A stretch of 64,000 nt of DNA from Candidatus Moraniibacteriota bacterium (GCA_046116545.1 CP175956.1:77219-141218); one strand, 5' to 3'. Positions 2,639 to 36,328 are shown, numbered from the stretch's first letter. Program-made: numbers and translations. The notes: generated from the sequence alone by a model not told the origin.

Positions 2639-2688
2639 TTTTTCGCTATACTCTATTTATATAGTAATTATAGTTTTTTTTATCATTT

Positions 2689-4932: not shown

Positions 4933-4985
4933 TATTAATTGTAGAGACGCGATTAATCGCGTCTCTACGTAACCATACTATTAAA

Positions 4986-6818: not shown

Positions 6819-6828
6819 TCAAAATTAT

Positions 6829-13897: not shown

Positions 13898-15211
13898 CTA
13901 AAGTTGACCGTGGCCAACATATTTAAATCCTGCCTCCTCCATCTTTTTTGTCCTATACACATTTCTAAAATCAACAAATGCTGGATCTTCATTCATAAGA
14001 TCTTTCAATCTATTTAAATCCAATGCACGAAATTGATTCCATTCAGTCATTAGAACAATACAATCAGCTCCATCGGCCGCATTATACGCATCTGTCGCAT
14101 AATAAGTTTCCTCTGGCAATGAGCTGCGAGCTTCATTCATACCTTTTGGATCATAGACTCTAACTATCGCACCTTTCTCAGCAAGTGTATTAACAATCAA
14201 CACTGCTGCAGAGGCCCGAGTATCATCTGTTTCTGGCTTAAATGTTAAACCTAAAACAGTGATTGTTTTTCCTGCTACATCACCGTCAACAATACTTTTG
14301 ATTTTTTTGATCATTGATGCTTTTTGAGCACTATTTGCCTCAACAGTTGCACTAACAATACGCAAATTACTACCATATTCCTGAGCAATTCGCAAAAGCG
14401 CTAACGTATCTTTGGGAAAGCAAGAGCCGCCATAGCCTGGACCAGGATGTAAAAATTTATCACCAATTCTCCCATCCATGCCCATACCTTTGGCAAGTTT
14501 TAGCACATCAGCACCAACACATTCACAAAGATTAGCCATCTCATTAATAAAGCTAATTTTCATTGCTAAAAAAGCGTTTGATGCATACTTGATTAGCTCT
14601 GCCGTCTCCAAAGTAGTTTCTAAAATTGGTGCCTCTCTGATATACAACGGCTCATAAACATCACACATAATATCAAATGCTTCTTTAGTTTCAGCACCAA
14701 TAACAATCCTGTCTGGCCTCATGAAATCATCAATAGCCGCACCCTCTCGCAAAAATTCTGGATTAGATACCATGTCAAAGTTTGCATTTGGATTTGTGCT
14801 ACTGATTATTCGCTTAACCTGCATTGCCGTCCCTGCTGGAACTGTACTTTTGTTAACTATGACAGTGTAATCCCTGAGATGCGGTGCTATATTCTTAGCT
14901 GCCGCATGTACATAAGACAAATCAGCATATCCATCTCCACGACGACTTGTGGGAGTGCCTACTGCTATAAATATAACATCAGCACCCAGAACTGCCTCTT
15001 CTAATTCAGTCGTGAAAATCAAGCTTTTACCTGCAGAAACTTTGGAAATCAAGACTTCTAACCCTGGCTCATAAATCGGAACTCCTCCACCCTTGAGAAG
15101 TGCCACCCTGTCTTCATCAATATCCACACATGTAACATAATGACCAAGATCAGCAAAACATGCCCCAGTAACAAGTCCAACATAACCAGCGCCTATCATT
15201 GTAATATTCAT
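13898..15211 (-). CDS. ugd: UDP-glucose 6-dehydrogenase
   Basis: N-terminal NAD fold IGAGYVGLVTGACFADLGH, catalytic-cysteine motif GGSCFPKD, and the family's C-terminal domain. Confidence 0.9.
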   Translation of the reverse strand: MNITMIGAGYVGLVTGACFADLGHYVTCVDIDEDRVALLKGGGVPIYEPGLEVLISKVSAGKSLIFTTELEEAVLGADVIFIAVGTPTSRRGDGYADLSYVHAAAKNIAPHLRDYTVIVNKSTVPAGTAMQVKRIISSTNPNANFDMVSNPEFLREGAAIDDFMRPDRIVIGAETKEAFDIMCDVYEPLYIREAPILETTLETAELIKYASNAFLAMKISFINEMANLCECVGADVLKLAKGMGMDGRIGDKFLHPGPGYGGSCFPKDTLALLRIAQEYGSNLRIVSATVEANSAQKASMIKKIKSIVDGDVAGKTITVLGLTFKPETDDTRASAAVLIVNTLAEKGAIVRVYDPKGMNEARSSLPEETYYATDAYNAADGADCIVLMTEWNQFRALDLNRLKDLMNEDPAFVDFRNVYRTKKMEEAGFKYVGHGQL

Positions 15212-15632: not shown

Positions 15633-15635
15633 AAA

Positions 15636-15672
15636 CTAAACTAAACTAAACTAAACTAAACTAAACTAAACA
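15636..15672. repeat. Pentanucleotide microsatellite (ctaaa), about 7 copies
   Basis: Direct tandem ctaaactaaactaaa..., read from the sequence. Confidence 0.85.
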
Positions 15673-15750
15673 GAATAAAACAGAACTAAGCTAAACATAC
15701 ATCATACGCTCCTACAGACTTGTCATTCCAGAAAATATTATTTGTATCCT

Positions 15751-15981: not shown

Positions 15982-16929
15982 CTATAGTTCTACAACATTC
16001 TTAACAGTATAATTCATTCTTTTCTGACCTTTATAATAATTTTTCATTACAATATCTGCAAGAAGTCCAAACACAAAGAACTGTACTCCCAACATTATGA
16101 AAAATGTACCCATAAGTGGCCAGATTCGCTCTGACAATGCAGCGTCAAAAAATACTTTCTCAACACTCATCCATGCAAGAATTGTCATGCCAAAAAATAT
16201 AAACACCATGCCTCCTCCGCCAAAGAAATGTAATGGTCTTGAAGCATACTTACGCCAAAACCAGATTGATATCATATCAACAAACCCCTTCACTGAACGT
16301 TTCCAATTATATTTAGTAACACCCGCAACTCTAGCGTGATGAGAAACCTTCACCTCTCCCACTGTATATCCATCTAATTCTAAAATAGCCGGTATAAAAC
16401 GATGCATTTCTCCAAACAAATCAATTCCTCGAAGTGCATCACCATCATACACCTTTAAACTACAACCAGAATCATGTATAGAATCTTTCAATAATAATTT
16501 TCGAAGCTTGTCAGCTGTTCTAGAAAAGAATTTTTTTGAAAAAGAATCTTTTCTATCAAATCTCCAGCCTGATACAATATCATACCCTTCAGCCTTTTTT
16601 TCTAGTAACTTTCCTATGTCAGCAGGATCATTTTGCAAATCACCATCCATCGTAACAATTACATCACCTACAGATGCCTTGAAGCCAGCATCAAACGCAG
16701 CTGTCTGACCAAAGTTCTTACGCAATTCAATCAATGTTAAATTAGATAAAGACTTACAAATTTCAACAGTCTTATCACAAGAACCATCATCCACAAAAAT
16801 AACCTCGTATGATTTATTCAATCCATCACATGCTTCAACAATTTTCCTGTGTAATTCTGCAACATTTCCTTCCTCATTATAAACAGGAACTACAACTGAT
16901 AACTGTACCTTTTTTTCTGAATTTTCCAT
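15982..16929 (-). CDS. GT2 polyprenol-phosphate glycosyltransferase (DPM1/ArnC/GtrB-like) with C-terminal TM helices
   Basis: Motifs VVVPVYNEEGNV, FVDDGS and MDGDLQND (DxD), plus two C-terminal TM helices. This is the expected partner enzyme for GT-C transferases. Confidence 0.85.
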   Translation of the reverse strand: MENSEKKVQLSVVVPVYNEEGNVAELHRKIVEACDGLNKSYEVIFVDDGSCDKTVEICKSLSNLTLIELRKNFGQTAAFDAGFKASVGDVIVTMDGDLQNDPADIGKLLEKKAEGYDIVSGWRFDRKDSFSKKFFSRTADKLRKLLLKDSIHDSGCSLKVYDGDALRGIDLFGEMHRFIPAILELDGYTVGEVKVSHHARVAGVTKYNWKRSVKGFVDMISIWFWRKYASRPLHFFGGGGMVFIFFGMTILAWMSVEKVFFDAALSERIWPLMGTFFIMLGVQFFVFGLLADIVMKNYYKGQKRMNYTVKNVVEL

Positions 16930-18333: not shown

Positions 18334-19842
18334 TTGATATACTGTTTATATATTCACATTGAAATAAATACTAAAATGTTACATAAAAAAAATATTACAA
18401 TTGCAAATTCAACAATATTCTTAACTATCCTGTGCTTATTATTTTTTGGCATGACTAAATTTTCTTTTGCTGCTGAGTGGCGCTATGAGGGGGTTGCCTA
18501 TTATGTACCAACCTCATCAAGTAATAACCTTCCTATATATCGATTTTATTCTCCGAAAAATAAATCTCATTTCTTTACAAAGTCAAAATCAGAAAAAGAT
18601 GCTATTATCAAAAAATATCCTACAACAGAGTGGAGATATGAAGGAGTTGCCTATTATGTGCCAAAGTCCTCAACAGGAAACCAGGCTGTTTATCGATTTT
18701 ATTCTCCTAGCAAAAAAACACATTTCTTTACAAAATCAAAATCAGAAAAAGATGCTATTATCAAAAAATATCCCACAACAGAGTGGCGATATGAAGGAGT
18801 CGCATATTATGTGCCAATAACTTCTACTAACAATAAACCTGTATATCGATTTTACAATACTATAAACAAGGCACATTTTTTTACAGCCTCAGAAAGTGAA
18901 AAGATTAGGTTAACTGCTAGTATTTATGGACCGTATATTTCTATTGGACTTCATGAATATTCACGTAGCACACTAAAAGACTCTGCATTCAAAATTGACT
19001 CAAAAAAAGATTATCTCATCAAAGACAAAAATGGTACAACAATTGCAAAAATTAAGGCTGGTGTACAAACAAAAGTTAAATATGATTCTGATGGAAATTT
19101 AAAAATATATAATTCCATATCAGAAAAAAAAGTTAATAAAGAGGTTAGATTTGAAGCAGCTGATGGAAACAATAGTGGTATGATATTTGATATACACAAA
19201 CCAGAATCTGATTTTGATGAATACCGTGGCAAAACAAAACTACGTTATAGTGATACAAGCAAAAATATTTGGGTTATCAATGAATTACCATTGGAATATT
19301 ATATTTGGGGTATGGGTGAAATCACTGGAACAGGTCCAATGGAATATAATAAAATGATGACCACAGCATATCGTACATATGGTTATTGGAAAATCCTCTA
19401 TTCCACCAAGTATGCTACTGAAGGATTTAAAGTAAATGCAACGCCTGGTAATCAAATTTATTATGGTTATGAATGGGAAAAAAGGTATCCTCGTATTAGA
19501 GAAGGAGCTGAATCAACACGTGGGAAAATTGCAAAACATGGTGATGATGTGGCATTAACTCCTTACTCAAGCTGGACTGATGGCAAGACACGTAGTTTTG
19601 AAGAACATTGGGGATCAACACTATATCCATGGTGTCAGTCTGTATCAGACCCTTATGGTGATTATAATGGTGACTATTGGGACAATTCATATAAAAGTAC
19701 ATCCGACCTTGTAGCAAGTGGCAATCATATGGTAGGTATCAGTGCACATGGAGCACTAACACTAGCAAATGATAAAAATTGGAATTGGGACAGAATTATG
19801 AAATACTATTTAGATGGAATTAATATTGTTTCAATTTATTAA
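18334..19842 (+). CDS. Secreted SpoIID/LytB-domain protein with three N-terminal 42-aa tandem repeats
   Basis: Signal peptide, then three copies of EWRYEGVAYYVP...PVYRFYSP.NK.HFFT.S.SEK. The C-terminal domain has SpoIID-like motifs INELPLEYYIWGMGEI...AYRTYGYW and YPWCQSVSDP. Confidence 0.65.
   Translation: MIYCLYIHIEINTKMLHKKNITIANSTIFLTILCLLFFGMTKFSFAAEWRYEGVAYYVPTSSSNNLPIYRFYSPKNKSHFFTKSKSEKDAIIKKYPTTEWRYEGVAYYVPKSSTGNQAVYRFYSPSKKTHFFTKSKSEKDAIIKKYPTTEWRYEGVAYYVPITSTNNKPVYRFYNTINKAHFFTASESEKIRLTASIYGPYISIGLHEYSRSTLKDSAFKIDSKKDYLIKDKNGTTIAKIKAGVQTKVKYDSDGNLKIYNSISEKKVNKEVRFEAADGNNSGMIFDIHKPESDFDEYRGKTKLRYSDTSKNIWVINELPLEYYIWGMGEITGTGPMEYNKMMTTAYRTYGYWKILYSTKYATEGFKVNATPGNQIYYGYEWEKRYPRIREGAESTRGKIAKHGDDVALTPYSSWTDGKTRSFEEHWGSTLYPWCQSVSDPYGDYNGDYWDNSYKSTSDLVASGNHMVGISAHGALTLANDKNWNWDRIMKYYLDGINIVSIY
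18475..18860 (+). repeat. Three 126-bp (42-aa) tandem coding repeats
   Basis: Periodicity is visible in the DNA and in the protein. The alternate-frame ORF 18467..18820 is an artefact of this periodicity. Confidence 0.8.
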
Positions 19843-19850
19843 TAACCACC

Positions 19851-19980
19851 ACTCAATCACCTCCTTTAAAAGGAGGTGAGATAAAAACTAAACTAAACAG
19901 AATTAAAGTTAAGTTAAATTAATCATACTATCCTCTCCCCTTTTTAAGGGGGAGATGTCCGAAGGACAGAGGGGGTTTTG
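19851..19980. repeat. Hairpin element family B (part 1 variant + ctaaa x2 + part 2)
   Basis: tcacctcctttaaaaggaggtga ... ctctcccctttttaagggggagatgtccgaaggacagagggggtt. Confidence 0.7.
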
Positions 19981-20024
19981 CAACAATTTTCTAGACATTT
20001 TCAAATCTATTTAATAACAATAAT

Positions 20025-20528
20025 ATGAAAAAAATATTGATAATAATTTATATACTAATATTTATTGCTCTTGCCTATTATGTTGTAACCATGTTTATAC
20101 GTAGAGACCATACTAAAGTGGATACAAAACAGGAAATTAAAATAGAGTCCTCTATAGAGTACTCCACAAAAGACTCTACAGAGAATTCTGCAGAAAATGA
20201 TTCAGCTGATAATGAAATAACTAATACTATTGAAACTACTCCAGAAAATACTGCCTATGATATAACAACTGAAGATTGTACTACTGAATGTATTAATATC
20301 GAAATTGATTCTAAAAAAGACTACTGTCTACAAGTTTGTGGCCTTATGGGCACCTCAAATGGCGAATCATGCAATGATTTAACTAAAATTGAAAGGGACT
20401 ACTGTTTAAGAAACGCTGCAATATCAGAAAAAAATATAGAAAAATGTAATGACATAAATGATGGTGGCATAAAGAAACAATGTGAAAATAGATTAAAAGA
20501 AGATCTTATTGATGAAATGATGCAATAA
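20025..20528 (+). CDS. Membrane-anchored Cys-rich hypothetical protein
   Basis: N-terminal TM helix, S/T/E-rich linker, and a C-terminal domain with 8 Cys. Confidence 0.4.
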   Translation: MKKILIIIYILIFIALAYYVVTMFIRRDHTKVDTKQEIKIESSIEYSTKDSTENSAENDSADNEITNTIETTPENTAYDITTEDCTTECINIEIDSKKDYCLQVCGLMGTSNGESCNDLTKIERDYCLRNAAISEKNIEKCNDINDGGIKKQCENRLKEDLIDEMMQ

Positions 20529-20604
20529 AAATAATTATCATTATTAAGAGAGATTAATAAAACATCCAGAGCTGAAAGCTACTTAAAATAACACTAGAAA
20601 AATC

Positions 20605-22467
20605 ATGAGAAACATCAAAAATATATATCTAATAATACTTGCATTATTTTTAATAGCATTTCCCACAGTAATTCATGCACAATCAAAATTGCCATCAATC
20701 CCCATACAATCAATCGCAGCTGAAAAAAACTATGTTGAAGGTGAAGTAATTGTAAAATATAAAATAAATACAAAAAAACAACAATTACTAAAAACATCTA
20801 CAGAAAAAAATGAATCACCAAGACTACTGCAATCTCTACAGGAAACACAATCCATGCATGATCTAAAAATAAAAAATACATTCAAAAATTTAAATATCAC
20901 AACATTACAATCAGATATACAATCAACCCAAGATTTAATAACTAAACTAGAACAAGATCCTGAAGTGGAATATGCGGAACCTAACTACAGAAAATATCCT
21001 ACATCAATACCAAATGATACTTATTTCAAAAGTACACAATGGGCACTATACAATACAGGACAGGAACTTTGTACACCTGACTGCACTACAGGAACAATCG
21101 ATGATGATATTGACGCAACAAATGCTTGGGATATAGAGATTAGTGCTGCCCAAAAAATAACCGTTGCAGTAATAGACAGTGGCTTAAATTATAATCACGA
21201 AGATTTATTACAAAATTTATGGAATGGTGCTAGTTGTGTAAATGAAAATGGAACAACTATACATGGTGGTTGTCCATATCATGGATGGGATTACGCCGAT
21301 AATGACAATAATCCTGCTGATACTACTGGAAGTGCGCAAGGACATGGAACAAGCGTTTCAAGTATATTTGGTGCAACAACAAATAATTCAAAAGGACTTG
21401 CAGGCATCAGTCTATATGGCAATGTAAAGGTTATGGCACTTCGATTTGATTTGGATACAATCTCTGAAATAAAAGCTATTGAATTTGCAAAAAATAATGG
21501 TGTCAAAATTATAAATGCAAGTTTTGCAGGAGATGCCTATTCACAATCAGAAAAAGATGCTATTGATGCATTTCCTGGAATATTTATAACAGCATCTGGC
21601 AACGGTGGCATTGATGGCTTACGTGATAACAATGACGTTACACCGCAATATCCATGTAATTATTCATCAAGTAATATAATATGTGTAGGTGCATCTGATC
21701 AAAATGATAATCTTGCTAGTTTTTCAAATTATGGACAAACAAGCGTTGATTTAGTGGCTCCTGGAGTAAATATATTAATTGCTTGTGATAATGTCTACTG
21801 TACTGGTGATGGTACTTCATTTTCTACACCCTACGTAACAGGTGTTGCTGCAATCTTGTCTAGCCACAATACAAAATTGTCTACATCACAAGTGAAAAGT
21901 TTAATACTTGATAATGTCGATAATGTTGGACTATCAACACAGATAAAAACGGGAGGTCGTCTTAATATGTATAAATCTCTTTACGATTTGAAAACTAGTT
22001 ACGGATATTCATACTCCACAAAACCAGTTTACAGATTCTATTCACCAAGCAATAAAGCACATTTCTTTACTGTATCCGAAACTGAAAAGAATCATATTGT
22101 TGCAACTTACCCAACCACTGAATGGCGATATGAAAATATTGCTTATTATGTACCAACAACATCTACTGGCAATAAGCCTGTGTATAGATTCTATTCACCA
22201 CGCAACAAAGCTCATTTTTTCACTGTATCAGAAACTGAAAAGAATCATATTGTTGCAACTTACCCAACCACTGAATGGCGATATGAAAATATTGCTTATT
22301 ATGTACCAACAACATCTACTGGCAATAAGCCTGTATATCGATTTTATTCTCCACGTAACAAAGCACATTTCTTTACTGTATCAGAAAGTGAAAAGAATCA
22401 TATTGTTGCAACTTACCCAACCACTGAATGGCGATATGAAAATATTGCTTATTATGTACCAAAATAA
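20605..22467 (+). CDS. Secreted subtilisin-like serine protease (peptidase S8) with three C-terminal 42-aa tandem repeats
   Basis: Signal peptide. Catalytic triad motifs VAVIDSG (Asp), HGTSVSS (His) and GTSFSTPYVTGVAA (Ser). The C-terminus has three near-identical repeats PVYRFYSPRNKAHFFTVSETEKNHIVATYPTTEWRYENIAYYVP. Confidence 0.85.
   Translation: MRNIKNIYLIILALFLIAFPTVIHAQSKLPSIPIQSIAAEKNYVEGEVIVKYKINTKKQQLLKTSTEKNESPRLLQSLQETQSMHDLKIKNTFKNLNITTLQSDIQSTQDLITKLEQDPEVEYAEPNYRKYPTSIPNDTYFKSTQWALYNTGQELCTPDCTTGTIDDDIDATNAWDIEISAAQKITVAVIDSGLNYNHEDLLQNLWNGASCVNENGTTIHGGCPYHGWDYADNDNNPADTTGSAQGHGTSVSSIFGATTNNSKGLAGISLYGNVKVMALRFDLDTISEIKAIEFAKNNGVKIINASFAGDAYSQSEKDAIDAFPGIFITASGNGGIDGLRDNNDVTPQYPCNYSSSNIICVGASDQNDNLASFSNYGQTSVDLVAPGVNILIACDNVYCTGDGTSFSTPYVTGVAAILSSHNTKLSTSQVKSLILDNVDNVGLSTQIKTGGRLNMYKSLYDLKTSYGYSYSTKPVYRFYSPSNKAHFFTVSETEKNHIVATYPTTEWRYENIAYYVPTTSTGNKPVYRFYSPRNKAHFFTVSETEKNHIVATYPTTEWRYENIAYYVPTTSTGNKPVYRFYSPRNKAHFFTVSESEKNHIVATYPTTEWRYENIAYYVPK
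22018..22464 (+). repeat. Three near-identical 126-bp tandem coding repeats
   Basis: The copies differ at only a few nucleotides. The alternate-frame ORF 22097..22525 is an artefact. Confidence 0.85.
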
Positions 22468-22588: not shown

Positions 22589-23539
22589 TTATTTAAAATA
22601 CTCTCTACCATGCACAATAAAGTTTTTTATATCAGATATAAATTTCTTTATTCCTTGTTGCCTAAATGTTCTCCATCCTTTGCGAGATAATGTCAAAAAA
22701 TAATCAGTATCCATCTTGCCCAATTTGAAATATATACCTCGATGTTTCTTGCGAAAGGTTTTCATGTTTTCTTCCATCATCTCTTCAATTTCATCCTCAG
22801 TATATCGTTTTTTAAATGTTGTACGATGATTATGAAATATAAATACATCACATGCGAGTACTAACTTCCATCCAAATTTTCGTGAACGTTCTGCATAATC
22901 ATCATCATCACGAAATCCCACTCCATACTCTTCTGACAACATTCCTACCTGTTCTATAACTTCTCTCTTTAGCAATGTAGAAAAGAACGCCAATATTCCA
23001 TCTCCAACTTGATAAGTCATTCCGCTATATTGTTTATTTATGATTTTTGCATATGATTCAAAATCATCATTATAATCTGGTAAATTTTCAAATATACTCA
23101 TCTTACCTTGTAACCGTTCCACTGACTGCCAACTGTCACATGGTGATGTCAAAGGTCCTACAAGCCCGATTTCAGGATCACTTTCTGCTATTTCAATATA
23201 CCTTTCAAGCCAACTTTCCGTCACTTCAGTATCATTATTTTGAAAAATAGCATAATCAACATCCACATTTTCTAAAAATTTCTCAAGACCTTGATTTGTT
23301 CCCTGCACAAACCCAAGGTTTTCATCATTCAAAATTGCAATATGTGGAATATTATTATCATTCAAAAAATTTTGAACAATTTCCCTATCTTCTTTTTCAC
23401 TTGCATTATCAACCCAAACAATACAATAATCTTTTGTATGTTTTGCAATACTATCAAAGCAACGAATCGTATAATCCGCGTTATTCCATGTTGGTGTAAT
23501 AATATATGTCTGTACTTTTTTCATATTAAAATATTTCAT
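22589..23539 (-). CDS. GT2-family glycosyltransferase (rhamnosyl/WbbL-like), paralog group 1
   Basis: N-terminus IITPTWNNADYTIRCFDSI...VWVDNAS. DxD-like motifs. Paralogous to 28484..29419 and to the N-terminal domain of 26371..28464. Confidence 0.7.
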   Translation of the reverse strand: MKYFNMKKVQTYIITPTWNNADYTIRCFDSIAKHTKDYCIVWVDNASEKEDREIVQNFLNDNNIPHIAILNDENLGFVQGTNQGLEKFLENVDVDYAIFQNNDTEVTESWLERYIEIAESDPEIGLVGPLTSPCDSWQSVERLQGKMSIFENLPDYNDDFESYAKIINKQYSGMTYQVGDGILAFFSTLLKREVIEQVGMLSEEYGVGFRDDDDYAERSRKFGWKLVLACDVFIFHNHRTTFKKRYTEDEIEEMMEENMKTFRKKHRGIYFKLGKMDTDYFLTLSRKGWRTFRQQGIKKFISDIKNFIVHGREYFK

Positions 23540-23622
23540 AATTTTCCTATCATATTACCTGTCTTTGCGAGGAGCGTTTAGCGACGTGGCAATCTCGACA
23601 ATAATACCACTAAACTCTCTAA

Positions 23623-24765
23623 TTAAGGATTCAACAATTTCCTTATTCCTTTTTTATTAAAAATAATATAATCTATCTCATCAAAACTATCACATTGAGT
23701 CAATTCATTATCTGCACTATAACATGCATCACATCGTCTTTGTAATTTACAGATGACATCATCCTTAGCATCATTTATCACGACAAGATAGTTCATGCTA
23801 TATGCTGGCATGTACTCACTCATACGAAGTCCTTTAAGCACTATGTCAATACTATTTTGATGTATTACACGATATACAACATCCTTTTCCTGCAACACTT
23901 TTTTCATATTCATTAAACTACCTCTATCACCGATATCCATAATATAAACAAATATTTTTTTTATACGTTTTATATTCACAATTTGCTCTAATATCTTCTC
24001 ATTATCATTTTTTGCAACAATTATACATGCAATATTTCCTTTTACCTTCCTCAATATATCACCTCCATCAGAATTATCACAAATAGTCATGAGGTCGTGT
24101 TTTGTCATTACACGCATTCTTTCCATATACAATTGCACAGTAGACGTCTTAGATGTCCCATGCAATCGTTTAAACAATAGATGTTCTGATACCCTCTGTG
24201 CCTGTTTATCTTTCAAAAAAGTAAGCCAAGCATCCCAGTCCTGAAATCGTCGCACATTTTCATCAAAGCCTTTAAAATCTTTCTTCCGTATTAAAGATGT
24301 TGTGTCAATATAATTCATCTGTTGTAATGAATTATATTCAAAATTCTTTGACATCCAATACTTTCCTTGTGCTGTTGCAGCAATTAATTTCTCGTCACCA
24401 AAAACAAGATGATCCGTATACACTAAATCAATATCAGTATTTGCATCAAGCACTTTTTGAGTTTTTTCAAGAAACTTATCATCTAAATAATTGTCAGCAT
24501 CCATATTCAAAATATATTCTCCTTTTGACTTTTCCAAACCAAAATTACGAGCCTTTTGAACAGATTCAAAATCAGCAACAAAATACTGCACCAAATCATT
24601 ATCAGTGTATTTTTTCATAACATCCTCAGTATTATCTGAACTAGCATCATTTATAACAATAATTTCAACCGGTAATACACTTTGCGCAAGCAAAGAATCC
24701 ACACACTGTTCAAGATAACATGCGTAATTATGTGCTGTAACAATAATAGTTGTTTTTTGATTCAT
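23623..24765 (-). CDS. GT2-family glycosyltransferase with a C-terminal extension
   Basis: Motifs IIVTAHNYACYLEQCVDSLLAQS...IIVINDASSDNT and MDADNYLDD. Confidence 0.7.
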   Translation of the reverse strand: MNQKTTIIVTAHNYACYLEQCVDSLLAQSVLPVEIIVINDASSDNTEDVMKKYTDNDLVQYFVADFESVQKARNFGLEKSKGEYILNMDADNYLDDKFLEKTQKVLDANTDIDLVYTDHLVFGDEKLIAATAQGKYWMSKNFEYNSLQQMNYIDTTSLIRKKDFKGFDENVRRFQDWDAWLTFLKDKQAQRVSEHLLFKRLHGTSKTSTVQLYMERMRVMTKHDLMTICDNSDGGDILRKVKGNIACIIVAKNDNEKILEQIVNIKRIKKIFVYIMDIGDRGSLMNMKKVLQEKDVVYRVIHQNSIDIVLKGLRMSEYMPAYSMNYLVVINDAKDDVICKLQRRCDACYSADNELTQCDSFDEIDYIIFNKKGIRKLLNP

Positions 24766-24820
24766 TTATTTATAGTCACTAAAAATATATCTATATCCAA
24801 TAATACTACAATCAACTCCA

Positions 24821-24926
24821 CGAAGCAATCTCAAAAAGAACACTCCTCTGTCTTTGCGTCAAGGTGAATTGAGCTCTGCTCAAGAGAGGGACCACCTGGG
24901 TGGAGGAGGTACGACGAAGCAATCTC
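24821..24926. repeat. Palindromic element family A, long variant (intergenic)
   Basis: cgaagcaatctc ... gtctttgcgtcaaggtgaattgagctctgctcaagagagggaccacctgggtggaggaggtacgacgaagcaatctc. ORF 24854..25048 is a read-through of this element. Confidence 0.8.
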
Positions 24927-24933
24927 CACAAGA

Positions 24934-26346
24934 CTATACAAAACAACTCTCCTTATCAAATCCCTTTCTCTCCCCTCTACCACTCTGTTCAATGAAAAAT
25001 GCATCATCCTTTTTATACGTATGCTCACCATGTCGCACACGGATATAATTATATCTATGTGTCGAATAAGCAGAATCACCATTCTCAATGATACGCCCCA
25101 CTAACTCAGCATCAATTGACTTTTTTATACTGGCAAACTTATATTTTTTCATGTCATCTGTTCGTATCAATATAGTTCCACCAGGCAGATGTGACCACCA
25201 ACGATCCTCCGCCTGCTCTCCAAACTCTATCATGACATCACTTTGCTCCAGATACGTAAAATTACCAGTCTTACCCACAATAGTAGCTTGTGAATAATGC
25301 AAGGCAAGATAGATATCATCTAAATGATTTGGACCATAATAATCATCATCATCCATTTTTGTAATATAATCTCCTGTGGCATTATCAACTCCAATATTTA
25401 AATTGTCTCCAAAAATTGTTAATGCATCTTTTTGTATAATCCTCACATCATAAGCCAAGTTCAATGTTTTAGATTTTATTTCATCAACATCAAACTCATC
25501 TCCATGCAATATCAAAATCAATTCTTTATTTGGATAATTTTGCAAAGAAATATTTTCAAATAATTGATTAATGTTCTCTGGACGCATAGTCGAAACAATG
25601 ATTGAAATTTTTTCCAACTTCTTTTTTTCAGACATGTTTATTTGTCCAAACTCAGTCATAACATATCGCCTCAAAACAATACTAAGTTTTTCTCTATAAA
25701 ACAAATCTTCACACTTCATTACAAATTCATCGGCATCATCATATGAACCAATGAAATTCATATATTCTTTTGGTATATATTTTTCCAAAGATGCTTTATC
25801 TCCCACTATCAAAGGCGCTCCCATTGCCATCAATTTCAATACACACCTAGTATAAGCATATTTTGTCTCAAATAATTCATCATCACAAATAACTACACTA
25901 CATAACTTCAATTTTTCTTTATCATATTTATCAGAAAAATCAACAAAATATTTTTTAATTTCGCTATAATTACTAAAATGCTTATCAAAAATACCTGTTT
26001 TAAATAAACTTTTCAGTTTCTTATTATTTCGCCTCTCCCCCACAATACAAATTTTTTCATTAGGATTATTTTGCCAATTGATTGGATTGTATTTCAATAT
26101 ATCTACAATACATTTGGCATTCTTCACATCATTTTCATCACACCCGCACATCTCATCAATTTTCTTACTACCATTTGCTACAAATATCAATTCTTTATTT
26201 TTATTTTCAAATAATATTTTACAGCAATTAACTGGCAGAGTAATGATTTTTACAGAACTTTTTACAGAACGAAAAAATAGCGCCTTTAGCCGCTCTTTTT
26301 TCGTTTCAAAAGTTAAAATATTTTCGATAATATTTAGATTTTTCAT
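24934..26346 (-). CDS. Two-domain protein with a C-terminal GT2-like glycosyltransferase domain
   Basis: C-terminal half has SIIVSTMRPENINQLFENISLQNY...LILHGDEFD and a DDD motif. Confidence 0.5.
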   Translation of the reverse strand: MKNLNIIENILTFETKKERLKALFFRSVKSSVKIITLPVNCCKILFENKNKELIFVANGSKKIDEMCGCDENDVKNAKCIVDILKYNPINWQNNPNEKICIVGERRNNKKLKSLFKTGIFDKHFSNYSEIKKYFVDFSDKYDKEKLKLCSVVICDDELFETKYAYTRCVLKLMAMGAPLIVGDKASLEKYIPKEYMNFIGSYDDADEFVMKCEDLFYREKLSIVLRRYVMTEFGQINMSEKKKLEKISIIVSTMRPENINQLFENISLQNYPNKELILILHGDEFDVDEIKSKTLNLAYDVRIIQKDALTIFGDNLNIGVDNATGDYITKMDDDDYYGPNHLDDIYLALHYSQATIVGKTGNFTYLEQSDVMIEFGEQAEDRWWSHLPGGTILIRTDDMKKYKFASIKKSIDAELVGRIIENGDSAYSTHRYNYIRVRHGEHTYKKDDAFFIEQSGRGERKGFDKESCFV

Positions 26347-26370
26347 TAATTTTATCTAAAACTATAAAAA

Positions 26371-28464
26371 TTAATTTATATCATCTGTATCCACAATCAT
26401 ATCAGTTGGAGCAAAGAATTTTCTATTTTTTTGAGGAAAATCAATATAACAATTTGAAATATTTATACTTTCATGCCATTTTTTATGAGATTTACTATAT
26501 TTTTTTCTAATTTCTGATATGCCATTATTTGTATTTGTGCCAGTGTCAGGATGATTAGTTAATGAACCTGCTTCATTTAAACAAAACATTGATACAAAAT
26601 ATTGATCTATGAATTCATCCTTATCCACAACAGCTCTTAATCTTCCTATAAATTCACTATCTGCACCATATTTAATATTATCCCAATATCCTATATATTT
26701 CTCTAAAAATGTTCTTTCTATTAAACAAGATATTGATGCTACTCTCATAACACCATCTTTTGAAAATGGATCTTCTTCTTGAATTTGAAACTCTCCTTGG
26801 TATGTCAACCTCAACATTCTAGCTAGTACAACCTTAGCATTTGTGTCTATGATATCTTCCATTTGTCTTTCAATTCTTTGAGGATGTGCCCAATCATCAG
26901 CATCATGTCCTGTAATGTAATCACCAGACACTTGTTTTAAAGCAATATTTTTTGATACATAAGGGCCAACATTTTGCTTATTATTTATAATTTTTATACG
27001 TTCATCATTATTAGCAAGAGATTGAATGATATCCCATGTATTATCAGAACTTTTATCATTAATGATAATAAGTTCTATATTTTTCCATGTCTGTGACAAC
27101 ACTGAGTCTACAGCCATCTCTATCGTATCCTCTGCATTGTATACTGGCATAATAACACTAACAACTGGACCATCTACTATATTTTTTTCTATTTTGCAAT
27201 GAAATCGATCAAATAAAGTATTTTTATTTTTTTTCAAAAATACTGGAGCTAACCTAAAACCTTCCAAATAAGCGTTAATATGTTTAAGCCATTTTTCCTC
27301 ATTACCTATATTCATATTTGCACTCAAAATATCAATTGCATCCCTATTTTTTTTTGATACATTTTTTTTTGCATGCAACAAAGATTCTTCTTTATCGTTG
27401 TCAATTTTAAATAATTTATATGCCCTTAATAATGCATCTTTAGTAGAAGGTTTTTCCGTTATTATTTTAAATAAATTAAATGGGAATGTTAATAGCTTAT
27501 ATGGCTTTCGCAAACTTCGAAAAAATAAGTCTCCCAAACGAAAACTCCTTGATTCTTTTAATTCCAAAACTTGCCTATTATTTTCCTGGATTTGTTTATT
27601 ATTTTCTTTTTTTTGATCTCGTAGTATACACCGTAATTCATCAATGTCATTTATATTTTCGAGATTTTTATTTCTATATTTTCCCTTGCCAAATTTTTGA
27701 TCTAATATTTTTTTATTACTTTTCTGCAAATCAACTATTTCATTCTCTGAATAAATTGATTTGAATGTTGTTCTATGATTATGAAAAATAAATACATCTT
27801 TAGCAAGAGCAACTCTCCAGCCAGCATTCATGGCACGATGATTAAAATCATTATCATCTCCAAAGCCAATGCCATATTCTTCAGCCAATAGACCTATGTC
27901 TTCAAATACTTCACTACGTATTAACGCACAAAAAAATGCTATGTAACGATAATCAGCAAGCACTTGTCTGTCATATCTTTTTGCAACTTTCTTTGCATAA
28001 CCTTCATTATCTTTTTTATATTCAGGAAAATCTGCAAACCCATCAACTTTATTTTTCAAATTATTTACAGATTGCCAACTGCCCTCAGTAGGAGAAACAA
28101 CAGTTCCCACTATACCCATTTTCTCGTCACTATTTAAAACTCTCGCCATTCTTTCAAGCCATCCAGCATATACTTCAACATCATTATTCAATAAAACAAT
28201 TTTTTTAACTTTATCATTTAAAGCAAGTTTCACACCTTGATTTGTAGCCTTTACAAAACCAAGATTTTTTTCATTAGAAATTAGAATATATGGTATATCA
28301 TTATTCATCAAAAAATCCTTAACTTCCTTCTTATCTTTTATATTAGATCCATTGTCTACCCAGATGATTTTATAATTCTCTGTATTCTTTGCCACGCTTT
28401 TAAAACAACGAATTGTATAATCCGCATTGTTCCAAGTTGGTGTAATAATATATATTGTAGACAT
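26371..28464 (-). CDS. Dual-domain glycosyltransferase: an N-terminal GT2 (paralog group 1) plus a C-terminal second GT2 domain
   Basis: N-terminus IITPTWNNADYTIRCFKSV...WVDNGS. C-terminal domain VSVIMPVYNAEDTIEMAVDSVLSQT...IIINDKSSDNT...HDADDW. Confidence 0.7.
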   Translation of the reverse strand: MSTIYIITPTWNNADYTIRCFKSVAKNTENYKIIWVDNGSNIKDKKEVKDFLMNNDIPYILISNEKNLGFVKATNQGVKLALNDKVKKIVLLNNDVEVYAGWLERMARVLNSDEKMGIVGTVVSPTEGSWQSVNNLKNKVDGFADFPEYKKDNEGYAKKVAKRYDRQVLADYRYIAFFCALIRSEVFEDIGLLAEEYGIGFGDDNDFNHRAMNAGWRVALAKDVFIFHNHRTTFKSIYSENEIVDLQKSNKKILDQKFGKGKYRNKNLENINDIDELRCILRDQKKENNKQIQENNRQVLELKESRSFRLGDLFFRSLRKPYKLLTFPFNLFKIITEKPSTKDALLRAYKLFKIDNDKEESLLHAKKNVSKKNRDAIDILSANMNIGNEEKWLKHINAYLEGFRLAPVFLKKNKNTLFDRFHCKIEKNIVDGPVVSVIMPVYNAEDTIEMAVDSVLSQTWKNIELIIINDKSSDNTWDIIQSLANNDERIKIINNKQNVGPYVSKNIALKQVSGDYITGHDADDWAHPQRIERQMEDIIDTNAKVVLARMLRLTYQGEFQIQEEDPFSKDGVMRVASISCLIERTFLEKYIGYWDNIKYGADSEFIGRLRAVVDKDEFIDQYFVSMFCLNEAGSLTNHPDTGTNTNNGISEIRKKYSKSHKKWHESINISNCYIDFPQKNRKFFAPTDMIVDTDDIN

Positions 28465-28483
28465 TGATTTATATTTCTAAAAT

Positions 28484-29419
28484 TTAAAGCCAGCTTTTAC
28501 CCTTCTTAAAAAGAAAATATTTAACATATCTAAATGTAAATTTAATACTTTCAACTAAACCATCGTTTTTGTATGTCACTTTTAAAAATTTTAAAAATTC
28601 TTCTAAATTTTTTGGATTTTTATCAATAAGATCTTTATATCTACCATGTTTCTTCTTGAGAATTTCTTGATTTTTTTTCCCCATTTCTTTAATTTCTTCT
28701 TCGGAAAAATGCTTTTTAAATGTCGTTCTATGATTATGAAAAATAAATACATCTTTTGCAAGGTATATTTTGTATCCTTTATCCAATGTTCTTGAACAAT
28801 AATCGTCATCATCACTAAATCCTAATCCATAATCCTCCGAAAGTATGCCAACCGTATTTAACAATTCTTTTTTTATTAATGTACAAAAAAATGCCACATT
28901 TGGATAAACCTCTATTGATTCTCCATTATATTTGTCTTTTATAATTTCTGAATATTTTTCTGGATTATCATTATAATTTGGAAGATTATCAAATTCGTCT
29001 GGCCTTTTTTTACGAAGATTGTTTATATCCTGCCATCCATGACTAGGTGAAGCCAATGGTCCTACAATTCCAATTTTTCTATTTTTAGTAAAAATAGAAA
29101 TCATGCGATTAAGCCAACCCCCATAAACTTCTGTGTCATTATTAAGTAAAACAACATAATCAACATTATCTTCAATTGCTTTTTTCATCCCTTGATTCGT
29201 GCCCTTTACAAAGCCCAGATTTACATTATTTAAAATTGCAATATGCGGCACATTGTTCTCTTTAAGAAAATTTTCAACCATTTCCACTTCTTCTTTTTCT
29301 GAACCATTATCCACCCAAACAATTTTATAATTCTCAGTGTTCTTTAATACACTTTCAAAACAACGTACAGTATAATCTGCATTGTTCCATGTTGGTGTAA
29401 TTATATATGTTTGACTCAT
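28484..29419 (-). CDS. GT2-family glycosyltransferase, paralog group 1
   Basis: YIITPTWNNADYTVRCFESV...VWVDNGS. Same architecture as 22589..23539. Confidence 0.7.
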   Translation of the reverse strand: MSQTYIITPTWNNADYTVRCFESVLKNTENYKIVWVDNGSEKEEVEMVENFLKENNVPHIAILNNVNLGFVKGTNQGMKKAIEDNVDYVVLLNNDTEVYGGWLNRMISIFTKNRKIGIVGPLASPSHGWQDINNLRKKRPDEFDNLPNYNDNPEKYSEIIKDKYNGESIEVYPNVAFFCTLIKKELLNTVGILSEDYGLGFSDDDDYCSRTLDKGYKIYLAKDVFIFHNHRTTFKKHFSEEEIKEMGKKNQEILKKKHGRYKDLIDKNPKNLEEFLKFLKVTYKNDGLVESIKFTFRYVKYFLFKKGKSWL

Positions 29420-29438
29420 GATATAGATTATTAAATAA

Positions 29439-30188
29439 TTATTTTATGTGACTACTATCATAAAGTTTTTTATCCCATTGAAATTGACTTTCTAGAATAT
29501 CAAAATCAACATTATCATTAATGGTAACAAGTACACGTATTTCAAAAAATACATCAATTTCATCAGGAAATATTATCGACATATCTTTTGGAGGGTGCTT
29601 TTTTGAATCATAATCATGTTCATCTATGTTGGCCATCAATGGATGTATTTTTTCATTAGTTGAATCACAAACTGTCTTAAATCCATACAACGCATATCTA
29701 GAAATTTTATTTGTATACAACATTTTCATAAGTAATTGATGAAATTCTATCGCAAGCATATGATTTGGATGTCCTGTCCAAAAAGACCAATAAAACTTCA
29801 ATCCTTTTGAAAACAAAAAACCATCAGCATCAAAAAATGGTTGCTGAATATAGAAAAAATCACGTGAATTATCTGCTGTAACATCTAATATATTTGCAAC
29901 ATCATCCATATTTGATATATGTTCAAGAAAGTGAGACATAATAGTAAATCTAACTTTATTTTCCAATTGTAAATCAATAACATTCGCGTGAAAAGCATTA
30001 TACCCAGCTTTTTTCATTATAAGAATTTTTGATTGATCAATGTCAATACCAAGTCCATTACCCGAATCTATACAAAAATATTTTTGTGCAAAATCAATAC
30101 TGCCACCCTTACTTGCTCCCAAATCAAGAAACTCTATATTATTTTCTTCAATATATTGATCAATGTCTTTATTTAAATCCATGCCCAT
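29439..30188 (-). CDS. Putative SAM-dependent methyltransferase (FkbM-like)
   Basis: Glycine-rich motif FLDLGASKGGS near the N-terminus. The family call is weak. Confidence 0.4.
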   Translation of the reverse strand: MGMDLNKDIDQYIEENNIEFLDLGASKGGSIDFAQKYFCIDSGNGLGIDIDQSKILIMKKAGYNAFHANVIDLQLENKVRFTIMSHFLEHISNMDDVANILDVTADNSRDFFYIQQPFFDADGFLFSKGLKFYWSFWTGHPNHMLAIEFHQLLMKMLYTNKISRYALYGFKTVCDSTNEKIHPLMANIDEHDYDSKKHPPKDMSIIFPDEIDVFFEIRVLVTINDNVDFDILESQFQWDKKLYDSSHIK

Positions 30189-30193
30189 TTATA

Positions 30194-30973
30194 TTATTTT
30201 TTAAAAAAATTCTGAAGTTGTAAGTATCTTCCTCTGATTTTCCAAAATTTTGACTTTTCCATTGTTGTAATTTTTTGCTTTAACATATTAATCTCATGAT
30301 TTTCACGTTGTCCTTCATGATGTGCAACAAAAAAATTTTCATTATCTCGTGCATTGGCATTGATACGATAATAATCTAAATTATTTTTCCAAATTACATA
30401 ATCAAAACTTAATTGATCACGTCTGCTATGTTTTTCAATTTCTCTCCACCAATCTTCATTTATTTTTTTTGTATTTTCTGCTAAATTTCTTCGAAAAACT
30501 ATTGGTGTTTCTGCTAACCCGTTATTCGGTGGATAGCCCTCTTTAATATAAGAAATGATTTGTTTTAACATATCAGCAGGATCATCTTTTGCTCTATAAA
30601 AACATTCAAGCATCTCATCATAAATACAATTTCTTAGTGAGTGTTGGTGTATTGCAACATCATGTTTCTTTAAATACTTATCAATAAGATATTCGATATC
30701 TTCAGTTCGAATCACAACTGATCCATCAATCCACACCACATATTCATATTCTGGAAGGAATTTATGTGTCAATATTTTACGCATCCTAGCATCAAGTGTA
30801 GGATCTGAAAAATAACGATTTTCTAGTCTTACATCAAAAACATCTGAATGAACTGATGCATCATCTGTAAAACAAATAAAATCACAACCTTTTATTTTTT
30901 TAGATGGCTCTTTTATTTTGTCATATCCATCACCAAATACTGCTGTATATATTGCTATTTTATTTTTATTCAT
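30194..30973 (-). CDS. Putative glycosyltransferase of the DUF616-like type
   Basis: N-terminus IAIYTAVFGDGYD...CDFICFTDD resembles the DUF616/TOD1 motif. The C-terminal tail SKFWKIRGRY is shared with the next gene. Confidence 0.4.
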   Translation of the reverse strand: MNKNKIAIYTAVFGDGYDKIKEPSKKIKGCDFICFTDDASVHSDVFDVRLENRYFSDPTLDARMRKILTHKFLPEYEYVVWIDGSVVIRTEDIEYLIDKYLKKHDVAIHQHSLRNCIYDEMLECFYRAKDDPADMLKQIISYIKEGYPPNNGLAETPIVFRRNLAENTKKINEDWWREIEKHSRRDQLSFDYVIWKNNLDYYRINANARDNENFFVAHHEGQRENHEINMLKQKITTMEKSKFWKIRGRYLQLQNFFKK

Positions 30974-30976
30974 AGA

Positions 30977-31861
30977 CTATGCTTTAAACATCTTATTTTT
31001 ATACGCCACATAATGATTTCGTATCTTCCAAAACTTTGATTGTTTAATTATTTGTAATTGGTGATTTTTTTGTTTAATTTCTTGATTTTTTTGTTTAATT
31101 TCTTGATTTTTTTGTTTAATTTCTTGATTTGTTCGCTGTATTTGTGTATTTCTTTTTTTGTGGATCTTTTTTTCTATTTTCAGCATATTAAATGCAAAAC
31201 GATCAGCACGATTTGCATAATACCCTTTTATTTCATCTTGGTTATTAAAGAAAATATCTCGAGATCCATCTTTCATAAATAAAACTCCTAGACCATGCCA
31301 ATGATAAAATTCTATAGTATCATACCTTTCTTTTAATTCATTCCACAATTTATATACACCAAAATCATCTTTTTTTTCATGTATGTCATGAAATAATATA
31401 AGTCCATCTTCCCTAACTTTAGGTAACCATGACTCAAAGTCATGCTTCACTGCCTCATAAGTATGTAATCCATCAATATGTAATATATCTATACTACTAC
31501 TATCAAACTCTTTTAAAGCTTCATCAAAAAATTTACGATGCAACTTTACATCTATTTTGCTATAACTTGCTTTTACTTCTTTTTTAAACACATTAAATAC
31601 CTCATCTTTTTTTTCATATCCTGCTCTAGCATGTGCATCACCTTCCCAAGAATCTACTGCATGCATTTCTGTCCCAAAAGAGTCATCTTTAACTGCCTGA
31701 CACATTGCAAAAAAAGATGCTCCATAATGCGTTCCCAATTCAACAACTCTCTTAGGTTTTACATTTCTAATTAAATCATACGCAAAAAAAGTATGTCCCC
31801 ACCATGTACTTGGAGTTTTACTATCAAATTCAAACTTTGGTTTATAATATTTCCATTTCAT
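30977..31861 (-). CDS. Class I SAM-dependent methyltransferase (Methyltransf_24/CmcI-like) with a C-terminal coiled coil built from QEIKQKN heptad repeats
   Basis: Motifs VVELGTHYGASFFAMCQA, VDSWEGD and ILHIDGLHTYEAV...LILFHDI. The C-terminus has NQEIKQKNQEIKQKNQEIKQKN, then SKFWKIRNHY. Confidence 0.6.
   Translation of the reverse strand: MKWKYYKPKFEFDSKTPSTWWGHTFFAYDLIRNVKPKRVVELGTHYGASFFAMCQAVKDDSFGTEMHAVDSWEGDAHARAGYEKKDEVFNVFKKEVKASYSKIDVKLHRKFFDEALKEFDSSSIDILHIDGLHTYEAVKHDFESWLPKVREDGLILFHDIHEKKDDFGVYKLWNELKERYDTIEFYHWHGLGVLFMKDGSRDIFFNNQDEIKGYYANRADRFAFNMLKIEKKIHKKRNTQIQRTNQEIKQKNQEIKQKNQEIKQKNHQLQIIKQSKFWKIRNHYVAYKNKMFKA
31058..31141. repeat. 21-bp tandem repeat (ttgtttaatttcttgatt ttt), 3-4 copies. 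It encodes the QEIKQKN heptads on the minus strand.
   Basis: Exact direct repeats read from the sequence. The alternate-frame ORF 31058..31282 is an artefact. Confidence 0.85.
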
Positions 31862-31865
31862 AATG

Positions 31866-32744: not shown

Positions 32745-32764
32745 TTCAAAACTATGTTAAATTA

Positions 32765-33454: not shown

Positions 33455-33482
33455 TATTTTTAAAAATTAAAAAATATAATTA

Positions 33483-34283: not shown

Positions 34284-34294
34284 TACTCAAACTA

Positions 34295-34320
34295 GATTCC
34301 CGCCTACGCGGGAATGACAC
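34295..34320. repeat. Family-D hairpin (gattcccgcctacgcgggaatgaca) in the 3' intergenic spacer
   Basis: Short palindrome ending in ggaatgaca. Terminator-like position downstream of cysC. Confidence 0.55.
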
Positions 34321-34328
34321 TAAAAAAA

Positions 34329-34853: not shown

Positions 34854-34870
34854 ATTTATAAATATTTTCT

Positions 34871-34897
34871 AGATTCTCGCCTTCCACGAGAATTACA
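34871..34897. repeat. Family-D-like hairpin downstream of wzt
   Basis: agattctcgccttccacgagaattaca. Confidence 0.45.
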
Positions 34898-34902
34898 GCT
34901 GA

Positions 34903-36318: not shown

Positions 36319-36328
36319 TGCTTTATAA

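Follow-up and report, generated by a model that had tools for sequence, protein, structure and literature searches.

A DUF5648 module on three secreted enzymes of a Moraniibacteriota bacterium: a probable targeting domain whose type follows the genome

Three secreted enzymes encoded in a 64,000-nucleotide stretch of the genome of a Candidatus Moraniibacteriota bacterium (GCA_046116545.1 CP175956.1:77219-141218; the whole stretch is referred to below as the window) carry the same repeat module, which is almost certainly the Pfam domain DUF5648 (PF18885). The hosts are a SpoIID-like (lytic-transglycosylase-like) protein, a subtilisin-like S8 protease and a protein of the GH114 (endo-α-1,4-polygalactosaminidase) family, and their genes lie beside a glycan locus dependent on an ATP-binding cassette (ABC) transporter of the Wzm/Wzt type. 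We favour, at a probability of roughly 0.55, the reading that DUF5648 tethers the three enzymes to a genome-specific surface glycopolymer, most likely the product of the adjacent locus. That DUF5648 is a ligand-binding targeting module is probable; that its ligand is a surface glycan is somewhat better than an even chance; and that the adjacent locus of the cell itself supplies the ligand falls a little short of even. Ligand binding itself, the glycan nature of the ligand and its origin in the neighbouring locus are all things that we infer. Glycan or cell-surface anchoring is a reasonable hypothesis that has already been published for DUF5648 (PMC12853789), and the original prediction, made from the window sequence, coincides with it. 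Three aspects seem to be new: the module has a conserved permuted N-terminal form, its blades are kept homogeneous by selection and, next to a variable glycan locus, its type switches together in the different enzymes of a genome.

The arrays were checked in the window, the GC content of which is 31.8%, by translation, Tandem Repeats Finder, a Pfam scan and a six-frame motif scan. The triple repeat was found, as originally proposed, in the SpoIID-like protein (18334/18376-19842, plus strand), the S8 protease (20605-22467, plus strand) and the GH114-propeller protein (37227-41255, minus strand). Tandem Repeats Finder returned a period of 153 nucleotides for each array, at 18475-18854 (~2.2 copies, 84% matches), 22033-22462 (2.8 copies, 94% matches) and 37232-37667 (2.8 copies, 95% matches), respectively. 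The repeat unit is thus 51 amino acids (aa) long, not 42 aa as first given, and consists of a 44-aa core and a 7-aa Ser/Thr/Gly/Asn linker. The PF18885 profile has 134 positions and covers the entire triple repeat; it scored 181.8 bits (E-value of 9e-54) in the SpoIID-like protein, 195.4 bits (5.7e-58) in the S8 protease and 197.2 bits (1.5e-58) in the GH114 protein. Since the cutoff is 25 bits, a chance match is excluded. Precomputed PF18885 matches are also present on the JGI gene calls and on P0035, annotated as 'SpoIID/LytB domain-containing protein [Candidatus Moraniibacteriota bacterium]' and identical to the SpoIID-like protein. The six-frame scan of the window revealed no DUF5648 copy beyond the three arrays. 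Three units per host, as had been claimed, are present in the S8 and GH114 proteins; the SpoIID-like protein instead contains a strand, two whole units and a half unit. The family, left unassigned in the original prediction, is named by the Pfam scan, so that the module is already catalogued rather than new: for the window alone the result is the correct recognition of a known domain, and its three proteins add members to a functionally uncharacterised family.

All window units share the motif YRF[YW]-x5-HF[YF]T-x4-E ... W-x-YEG, in which R, F, H, T and E are invariant or nearly so in each repeat (alignments A1, A3 and A4). AlphaFold2 (AF2) modelling of the triple unit, the check suggested along with the original prediction, was performed on the S8 module and gave a confident (β1-β2-α-β3)×3 arrangement (predicted local distance difference test score, pLDDT, 98.4; predicted template modelling score, pTM, 0.90). 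The predicted elements (E, strand; H, helix) are E2-8, E13-17, H20-29 and E36-43 in the first unit, E51-59, E64-68, H71-80 and E87-96 in the second, and E102-110, E115-119, H122-131 and E138-147 in the third, and so the model displays the three tandem ~45-50-aa β1-β2-α-β3 subdomains that characterize PF18885. By sequence the module has no solved relative in the PDB, where a single-sequence search retrieved nothing and a profile search gave chance ARF matches alone (E>0.3). A Foldseek search of the PDB with the full SpoIID-like model found SpoIID and SleC structures for the catalytic part and none for the module. A fold search of BFVD returned one unnamed phage protein (E-value of 8e-6), which is uninformative; NCBIfam contains no model for the module, and the sole PHROG match is phrog_23345, of unknown function. 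The original prediction also likened the repeats to ~40-aa wall- or carbohydrate-binding repeats of Gram-positive secreted proteins. Kinship with the wall-binding repeats is not supported: a Pfam scan of the three proteins (E<=0.01) gave no match to SLH (PF00395), CW_binding_2 (PF04122), the choline-binding CW_binding_1 (PF01473) or ricin-type domains, and the fold differs, so that the likeness is at best one of function.

The family is large. An exhaustive HMMER search collected 11,035 cluster representatives at E<=1e-3 and 5,175 at E<=1e-10, from both monoderm and diderm lineages. In most members DUF5648 occupies the extreme C-terminus, and it also occurs N-terminally (permuted), internally or as tandem double copies. 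Partner domains among the 91 best DUF5648 relatives include S8 (8 proteins), reprolysin, SpoIID, PKD, fn3, CARDB, BACON, LRR and TSP3. Scans of the genome collection with single-sequence patterns matched nothing, and those with alignment A5 matched just one 3.6-kb contig, L008 (JAVEZL010000077.1), which encodes P0001. This protein carries the closest database relative of the window module (72% identity). The contig has been binned as 'Bacteroidales bacterium' and, judging by its Moranbacteria-type sequence, is probably a mis-binned contig of the candidate phyla radiation (CPR).

All three hosts appear to be secreted by way of a typical Sec-type signal sequence; the putative signal-peptide cuts read from the N-termini fall between MRNIKNIYLIILALFLIAFPTVIHA and QS, between MKKIILFIALLLIPVSFTDA and WW, and between a stretch ending in LCLLFFGMTKFSFA and AEW. 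The SpoIID-like protein, 488 aa from the ATG called by both JGI and NCBI (18376-19842, plus strand), is composed of a signal peptide, a permuted DUF5648 module and a SpoIID-type catalytic domain (18928-19839, plus strand). The latter matches PF08486 with 28.2 bits against a cutoff of 23 (E-value of 3.1e-6), and a Foldseek search with the model retrieved the SpoIID structures 5i1t (1.5e-11) and 4rwr (1.4e-8). Because TIGR02669 scores 63 bits, under its 83-bit cutoff, the protein is best regarded, by hidden Markov model and predicted fold, as a divergent member of the SpoIID/LytB family. Its catalytic domain contains 25 invariant columns across 108 orthologues, and the full-length AF2 model built from the 108-sequence alignment has a pLDDT of 92.9. 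The S8 protease (20605-22467, plus strand) consists of a signal peptide, a fervidolysin-type prodomain (Fervidolysin_NPro-like, 2.6e-9), a catalytic domain at ~21151-21927 (Peptidase_S8, 1.6e-42) with the D/H/S motifs VIDSG, HGTSV and GTSFSTP in its translation, and a C-terminal canonical DUF5648 module of three 51-aa units (22021-22464, plus strand), delimited by Tandem Repeats Finder, unit identity and AF2. In the GH114 protein (37227-41255, minus strand; GH114, 4.8e-88) PD40 and SBBP repeats form a β-propeller region and a canonical module, likewise of three 51-aa units, lies at the C-terminus (37230-37673, minus strand; Tandem Repeats Finder and unit identity). That the hosts are unrelated, as had been claimed, is confirmed by Pfam together with Foldseek for the SpoIID-like protein and by the Peptidase_S8 and GH114 Pfam matches for the other two.

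The SpoIID-linked module (18472-18918, plus strand) lacks the canonical β1-to-β3 order found in the S8 and GH114 copies, as judged from both its sequence register and the AF2 model. A lone C-terminal strand, EWRYEGVAYYVP, right after the signal peptide is followed by two whole units and then by a half unit, PVYRFYNTINKAHFFTASESEK, which leads straight into the SpoIID catalytic domain. On the plus strand, the β3 strand occupies positions 18475-18510, unit 1 18532-18663, unit 2 18685-18816 and the β1-β2-α half unit 18838-18918. The mature N-terminus of the protein is the final strand of a unit (AEWRYEGVAYYVP), and the module as a whole contains each element three times (β3 strands and β1β2α segments), with the order shifted by one strand; the best Pfam stretch in this copy spans profile positions 27-133 only. 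The predicted elements of the SpoIID-like model are E35-44; E51-59, E64-68, H71-80 and E87-96; E102-110, E115-119, H122-131 and E138-147; and E154-161, E166-170 and H173-180. In this model the first strand comprises 10 residues, equal in length to the other β3 strands, and the mean pLDDT of residue block 41-50 is 97. The orthologues share the permuted register, in which W/Y-x-Y-E-G comes directly after the signal peptide, and so does P0002, encoded in another Parcubacteria metagenome-assembled genome; longer paralogues of ~620-650 aa contain six units. The SpoIID-linked module is therefore a conserved circular permutation of DUF5648, a form described neither in PMC11299179 and PMC12853789 nor in the accessible part of bioRxiv 10.64898/2026.04.26.720912. 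Such a permutation would let the module sit N-terminally and run directly into the SpoIID catalytic domain.

Units within any one array are 89-98% identical, whereas those of different window arrays share 68-89% identity. Identity is 95-98% among the S8 units, 91-98% among the GH114 units and 82-89% between the two sets. In S8 orthologues of two other genomes, unit identity is again 89-98% within a protein and falls to 48-80% between orthologues. Because within-protein identity is high and between-protein identity lower both in the window and in these two S8 proteins, the units evolve in concert. At the DNA level the units are 92-98% identical within the S8 and GH114 arrays and 68-81% identical between arrays, with 13-18 synonymous codon differences per 44 codons. 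The S8 units differ from one another at 8 synonymous versus 1-2 nonsynonymous codons, for which reason the homogeneity of the blades is not merely the product of recent duplication and seems to be maintained by selection. Recent gene conversion was also considered as the cause of module similarity within the genome and is ruled out by the high synonymous divergence between the S8 and GH114 modules (18.3 synonymous versus 6.3 nonsynonymous codon differences out of 44). Homogenised arrays of this kind are uncommon, though not unique: among the closest family representatives the median identity of adjacent units is ~61%, and it is at least 85% in 15 of 171.

The original prediction further portrayed the repeat as an autonomous module that shifts between the N- and C-termini of unrelated secreted enzymes, and a comparison of 106 orthologues of the SpoIID-like protein agrees with it, the module being swapped independently of the catalytic domain. 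With the window protein as reference, identity is lower in the module than in the catalytic domain for 105 of the 106 orthologues (means of 39% versus 59%), and the two values do not correlate (Spearman 0.14, p 0.16). The closest catalytic relatives (74-80% identity) mostly possess different modules (21-52% identity). In one SpoIID orthologue, P0151, DUF5648 is replaced by a discoidin (F5/8-C) domain, which belongs to a sugar- or lipid-binding family. Two more, P0134 and P0152, have in its place a ~150-aa K/Y/E-rich low-complexity basic segment (YEKYEKYLKYEKYKKYKK...) that may serve as an alternative, charge-based wall-binding segment. Other GH114 proteins contain ricin (P0320), SLH, PKD or fn3 domains instead of DUF5648, and the sole other GH114-DUF5648 fusion seen in a search with the window protein is P0342.

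The window was compared with nine loci orthologous to its SpoIID-like gene (L002, L003, L005, L006, L007, L009, L010, L011 and L012) and with L004, the locus of a six-unit paralogue. The modules fall into discrete types: type A in the window, L002, L005 and, more loosely, L009; type B in L003, L006 and L010; type C in L007; and type D, a two-unit variant, in L011. Without exception, genomes with two or three DUF5648 proteins display the same module type on all of them. Mean module identity is 75% (minimum of 68%) for the 11 pairs of different enzymes from the same genome, 48% for 57 pairs of the same enzyme from different genomes and 49% for 85 pairs differing in both. Between close relatives the module types are 16-55% identical. 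The L011 variant (IYRLYN..HLYTRG..FEYTDG) is carried by both the SpoIID and the S8 protein of that genome, with 69% mutual identity and no more than 32% to anything else; between the SpoIID catalytic domains of L011 and the window, identity is nevertheless 76%. For L002 and L003 the corresponding values are 77% for the catalytic domains and 46% for the modules, and the window, an outgroup by Ugd, nevertheless has type A in common with L002 and L005. At the level of sequence, then, the module grouping conflicts with the catalytic-domain and Ugd relationships, and module type follows the genome and not the host enzyme. DUF5648 proteins can also cluster in threes or more around the locus: in L010 the gene for a 731-aa DUF285-DUF5648 protein (1511-3706, minus strand) adjoins the SpoIID- and S8-DUF5648 genes, and all share one module type with 76-79% identity.

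The window is one large envelope island. It begins with four PMT_2 glycosyltransferase genes, LPG_synthase_TM, a GT4 gene, Ugd, a GT2 gene and DUF4349; these are followed by the SpoIID-like gene, a 167-aa open reading frame (ORF), the S8 gene, the convergent Wzm/Wzt locus and the GH114-DUF5648 gene, the last directly upstream of wzm on the same strand, and beyond it by ATP sulfurylase and a class-A penicillin-binding protein. According to Pfam scans the glycan locus (22589-37156, minus strand) encodes five GT2 glycosyltransferases, a TOD1/MUCI70-like glycosyltransferase, Methyltransf_24, DUF4915, a borderline sulfotransferase, a CysQ-like phosphatase, APS kinase, Wzt (a weak Wzt_C match) and Wzm. 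Glycan-synthesis genes adjoin the DUF5648-SpoIID gene in the window and likewise in each of the nine orthologous loci. An S8-DUF5648 gene follows in L002, L003, L006, L010 and L011; in L005 it is located at the far end of the glycan locus, which is thus flanked on both sides by DUF5648 proteins, an arrangement also seen in the window. The content of the locus varies, with TagF-like glycerophosphotransferases in L003, rhamnose-type epimerases in L006 and a Wzx-type flippase in L012, and the core type-A genomes (window, L002 and L005) share an orthologous first GT2 (77-79% identical), second GT2 (57-60%) and TOD1_MUCI70 gene. The synteny, the sharing of one type per genome and the association of the type-A core with one locus type lend indirect support to the neighbouring locus as the source of the ligand.

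Under the reading that we favour, each 51-aa unit is one blade (β1-β2-α-β3) of the DUF5648 domain, and three blades come together about a pseudo-threefold axis as a compact three-bladed β-α propeller. The module would act in a lectin-like manner, its three near-identical sites providing avidity for a repetitive polymer, and would hold the SpoIID-type peptidoglycan enzyme, the S8 protease and the GH114 glycosidase at a genome-specific surface glycopolymer, presumably the one made by the adjacent variable Wzm/Wzt locus. More tentatively still, we envisage in Moranbacteria (CPR) a 'serotype-matched' wall anchoring, in which all secreted enzymes of a cell (SpoIID-type, S8, GH114, DUF285 and others) would bear one module type that switches in all of them together with the glycan locus, with blades kept identical by selection and permutation tolerated for N-terminal use.

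Several observations weigh against this reading. The literature on DUF5648 contains no ligand, structure or binding experiment for any family member, and glycan binding was itself only deduced in PMC11299179 and PMC12853789. The R, H, T, E and aromatic residues conserved in the units across the family could be purely structural, and it is from the model that we infer completion of blade 3 by the N-terminal strand in the permuted copy. The similarity of modules within a genome could reflect shared descent with occasional conversion instead of a shared ligand. TOD1_MUCI70 is present in three of four type-A genomes and in none of five others (Fisher p 0.048, a statistic that ignores phylogenetic non-independence); L009 combines an A-like module with a different first glycosyltransferase; and the type-B genomes (L003, L006 and L010) do not have their first locus gene in common. 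Between 3 and 10 kb of each neighbouring glycan locus was visible, and the association of module type with locus type, clear only for the three type-A genomes, is suggestive. By count of net charge, the window SpoIID units are strongly basic, S8 and GH114 units are close to neutral and L003 units are acidic, so that module charge shows no obvious tracking of an anionic ligand.

Alternatively, the module might target glycans on other cells, be it the host of an episymbiotic CPR bacterium or competitors, so that wall-lytic, proteolytic and matrix-glycosidase activities would reach a foreign surface; we regard this as unlikely. Patescibacteria (CPR) are noted for episymbiosis, and Moraniibacteriota belong to Parcubacteria/Patescibacteria; fast, type-wise evolution of the module would also be expected of receptor-binding domains facing a variable target. 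Moreover, the toxins BSAP-2 and BSAP-3, with DUF5648 C-termini, kill through the O-antigen of the target strain (PMC12853789), and a GH25 endolysin also carries DUF5648 (bioRxiv 10.64898/2026.04.26.720912). However, in the window and all nine orthologous loci it is the organism's own glycan locus with which the genes share synteny; the co-occurrence of type-A modules with a single locus type would not be expected of a foreign ligand; and the SpoIID-like enzyme is encoded by a conserved single-locus gene with envelope genes such as Ugd and GT2 on its flanks.

Binding to peptidoglycan or another conserved wall component, generic in the manner of LysM or SH3b, is less probable again. Over 100 Moranbacteria proteins combine DUF5648 with a SpoIID-type enzyme, and, as noted, it is also fused to a GH25 endolysin; in the accessible part of that preprint, on enterococcal endolysins, DUF5648 is listed among the domains docked with muropeptides, with no result given for it. 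A conserved ligand predicts neither genome-specific types with 16-55% identity between close relatives nor a module that evolves faster than the catalytic domain, and DUF5648 is also present on GH70 glucanotransferases, Gram-negative BSAP toxins and proteases (PMC11299179; PMC12853789). We assign a similarly low probability to a module without any ligand, acting as a mobile structural, spacer or oligomerisation domain or as a secretion or sorting tag. It would agree with the lack of a demonstrated ligand, with conserved residues that could be core residues and with the extreme C-terminal placement typical of sorting domains, but not with the N-terminal permuted, internal and tandem double copies, the spread over monoderm and diderm lineages or the interchangeability with a discoidin domain; type co-switching across the enzymes of one genome is hard to explain without a common partner. 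Finally, the chance that the similarity is a functionally meaningless by-product of recent duplication, gene conversion or assembly error is negligible: the DNA identity of the S8 and GH114 units is by itself suggestive of recent duplication, but this explanation is refuted by the synonymous-site divergence reported above, both between arrays and within the S8 array, and by the same architecture in independent assemblies from different samples.

Several features accompany the DUF5648 genes and the glycan locus. The 167-aa ORF between the SpoIID-like and S8 genes (20025-20528, plus strand) has an N-terminal hydrophobic segment and a Cys-rich C-terminal half. ORFs of 168-211 aa follow the SpoIID-like gene in L002, L003, L006, L007, L009, L010, L011 and L012 and have no Pfam or NCBIfam match; the window ORF is a conserved partner and may belong to the same unit as the neighbouring DUF5648 genes. 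The GH114-DUF5648 gene is adjoined by that of a 1051-aa PGAP1/LCAT-like α/β-hydrolase protein (41935-45090, minus strand) with an acidic low-complexity tail and a C-terminal hydrophobic anchor, a 1029-aa homologue of which is encoded near the six-unit DUF5648-SpoIID paralogue in L004 (3964-7053). Sulfate-activation genes (32765-34853 and 48093-49214, minus strand) encode ATP sulfurylase (2.8e-75), APS kinase (9.2e-53) and a CysQ-like PAP phosphatase (2.8e-49), and the sulfotransferase match is borderline (21.6 bits against a cutoff of 22); three of these four genes lie inside the Wzm/Wzt locus and that of ATP sulfurylase ~11 kb beyond. This small CPR genome has the complete set, which suggests that a surface polymer is sulfated. 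Inside the Methyltransf_24 gene (30977-31861, minus strand), a 21-bp tandem repeat (31062-31130; 3.3 copies, 100% matches) forms an in-frame 7-aa repeat near the C-terminus of the protein, the length of which could vary. An (AAACT)12.8 microsatellite at 15633-15696, intergenic between Ugd (13898-15211) and the GT2 gene (15982-16929), is a possible slipped-strand switch for envelope genes. The four successive large PMT_2 (GT-C, ArnT/PMT-like) membrane glycosyltransferase genes (911-8781) have similar counterparts near L006, L009 and L012. Genes for an AAA_14/DUF4143 ATPase, AbiEii and 23S_rRNA_IVP (PF05635) are scattered around the loci in the window (46739-47989, minus strand), L004, L005, L006, L007, L010 and L012, which suggests a recombination-prone island and would fit the swapping of loci and modules.

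DUF5648 comprises ~11,000 clusters at 50% identity without an experimental function. The presence of the same catalytic domains with discrete module types beside a variable glycan locus represents a natural experiment, in which a match between module type and glycan type is testable. The envelopes of CPR bacteria are almost unstudied, and the locus hints at how these organisms might position wall-remodelling enzymes. If the favoured reading is true, the modules could be used as strain-specific probes for the surfaces of uncultured Patescibacteria, much as has been proposed for the C-terminal domains (CTDs) of BSAP toxins. The conserved permutation and the near-perfect threefold symmetry, maintained by selection, are relevant to the evolution and design of repeat proteins.

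Among known systems, SLH and CW_binding_2 (CWB2) modules consist of three tandem ~55-90-aa repeats with pseudo-threefold symmetry and anchor surface proteins non-covalently to a secondary cell-wall polymer; they are found at either terminus of S-layer proteins and assorted secreted enzymes, often with the polymer locus nearby. Their ligand binding is proven and their fold is different, so that the resemblance of DUF5648 would be one of functional analogy. Serotype-matched anchoring, if true, would play in CPR bacteria the part that the SLH/secondary-cell-wall-polymer and CWB2/PSII systems play elsewhere, but with an unrelated three-bladed fold. The β-trefoil (ricin-B type) lectins likewise have three ~40-50-aa repeats, pseudo-threefold symmetry and up to three equivalent sugar sites, and are commonly appended to glycosidases, as in the GH114 protein P0320; the all-β trefoil fold and (QxW)3-type repeats that define them are absent from the module.

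The nearest described counterparts are members of PF18885 itself. An AlphaFold '(β3α)3' auxiliary domain of two GH70 α-glucanotransferases (PMC11299179, section 3.8.7) is a DUF5648 domain with three ~45-51-aa β1-β2-α-β3 subdomains and the motif YRF[YW]...HF[YF]T..E...W.YEG. It is located C-terminally on a secreted enzyme, as in the S8 and GH114 proteins of the window. Its subdomains are 39-55% identical to each other, compared with 89-98% in the window, and, unlike in the GH70 enzymes, the hosts here are SpoIID, S8 and GH114 proteins of a CPR bacterium and the SpoIID-linked copy is N-terminal and permuted. The group 1 CTDs of the BSAP-2/BSAP-3-type MACPF toxins, described as an AlphaFold 'three-bladed β-α propeller' (PMC12853789), belong to the same Pfam family, have the same predicted fold and are borne by a secreted effector the specificity of which has been proposed to lie in the O-antigen; the binding test in that study was performed on the CTD of BSAP-1 only, which has a different fold from the DUF5648 CTD. 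The BSAP producers are Bacteroidales, their ligand is on the outer membrane of a competitor and the effector is a pore-former, whereas in the window, from a CPR (Patescibacteria) bacterium, the partners of the module are hydrolases and their genes are syntenic with the organism's own glycan locus.

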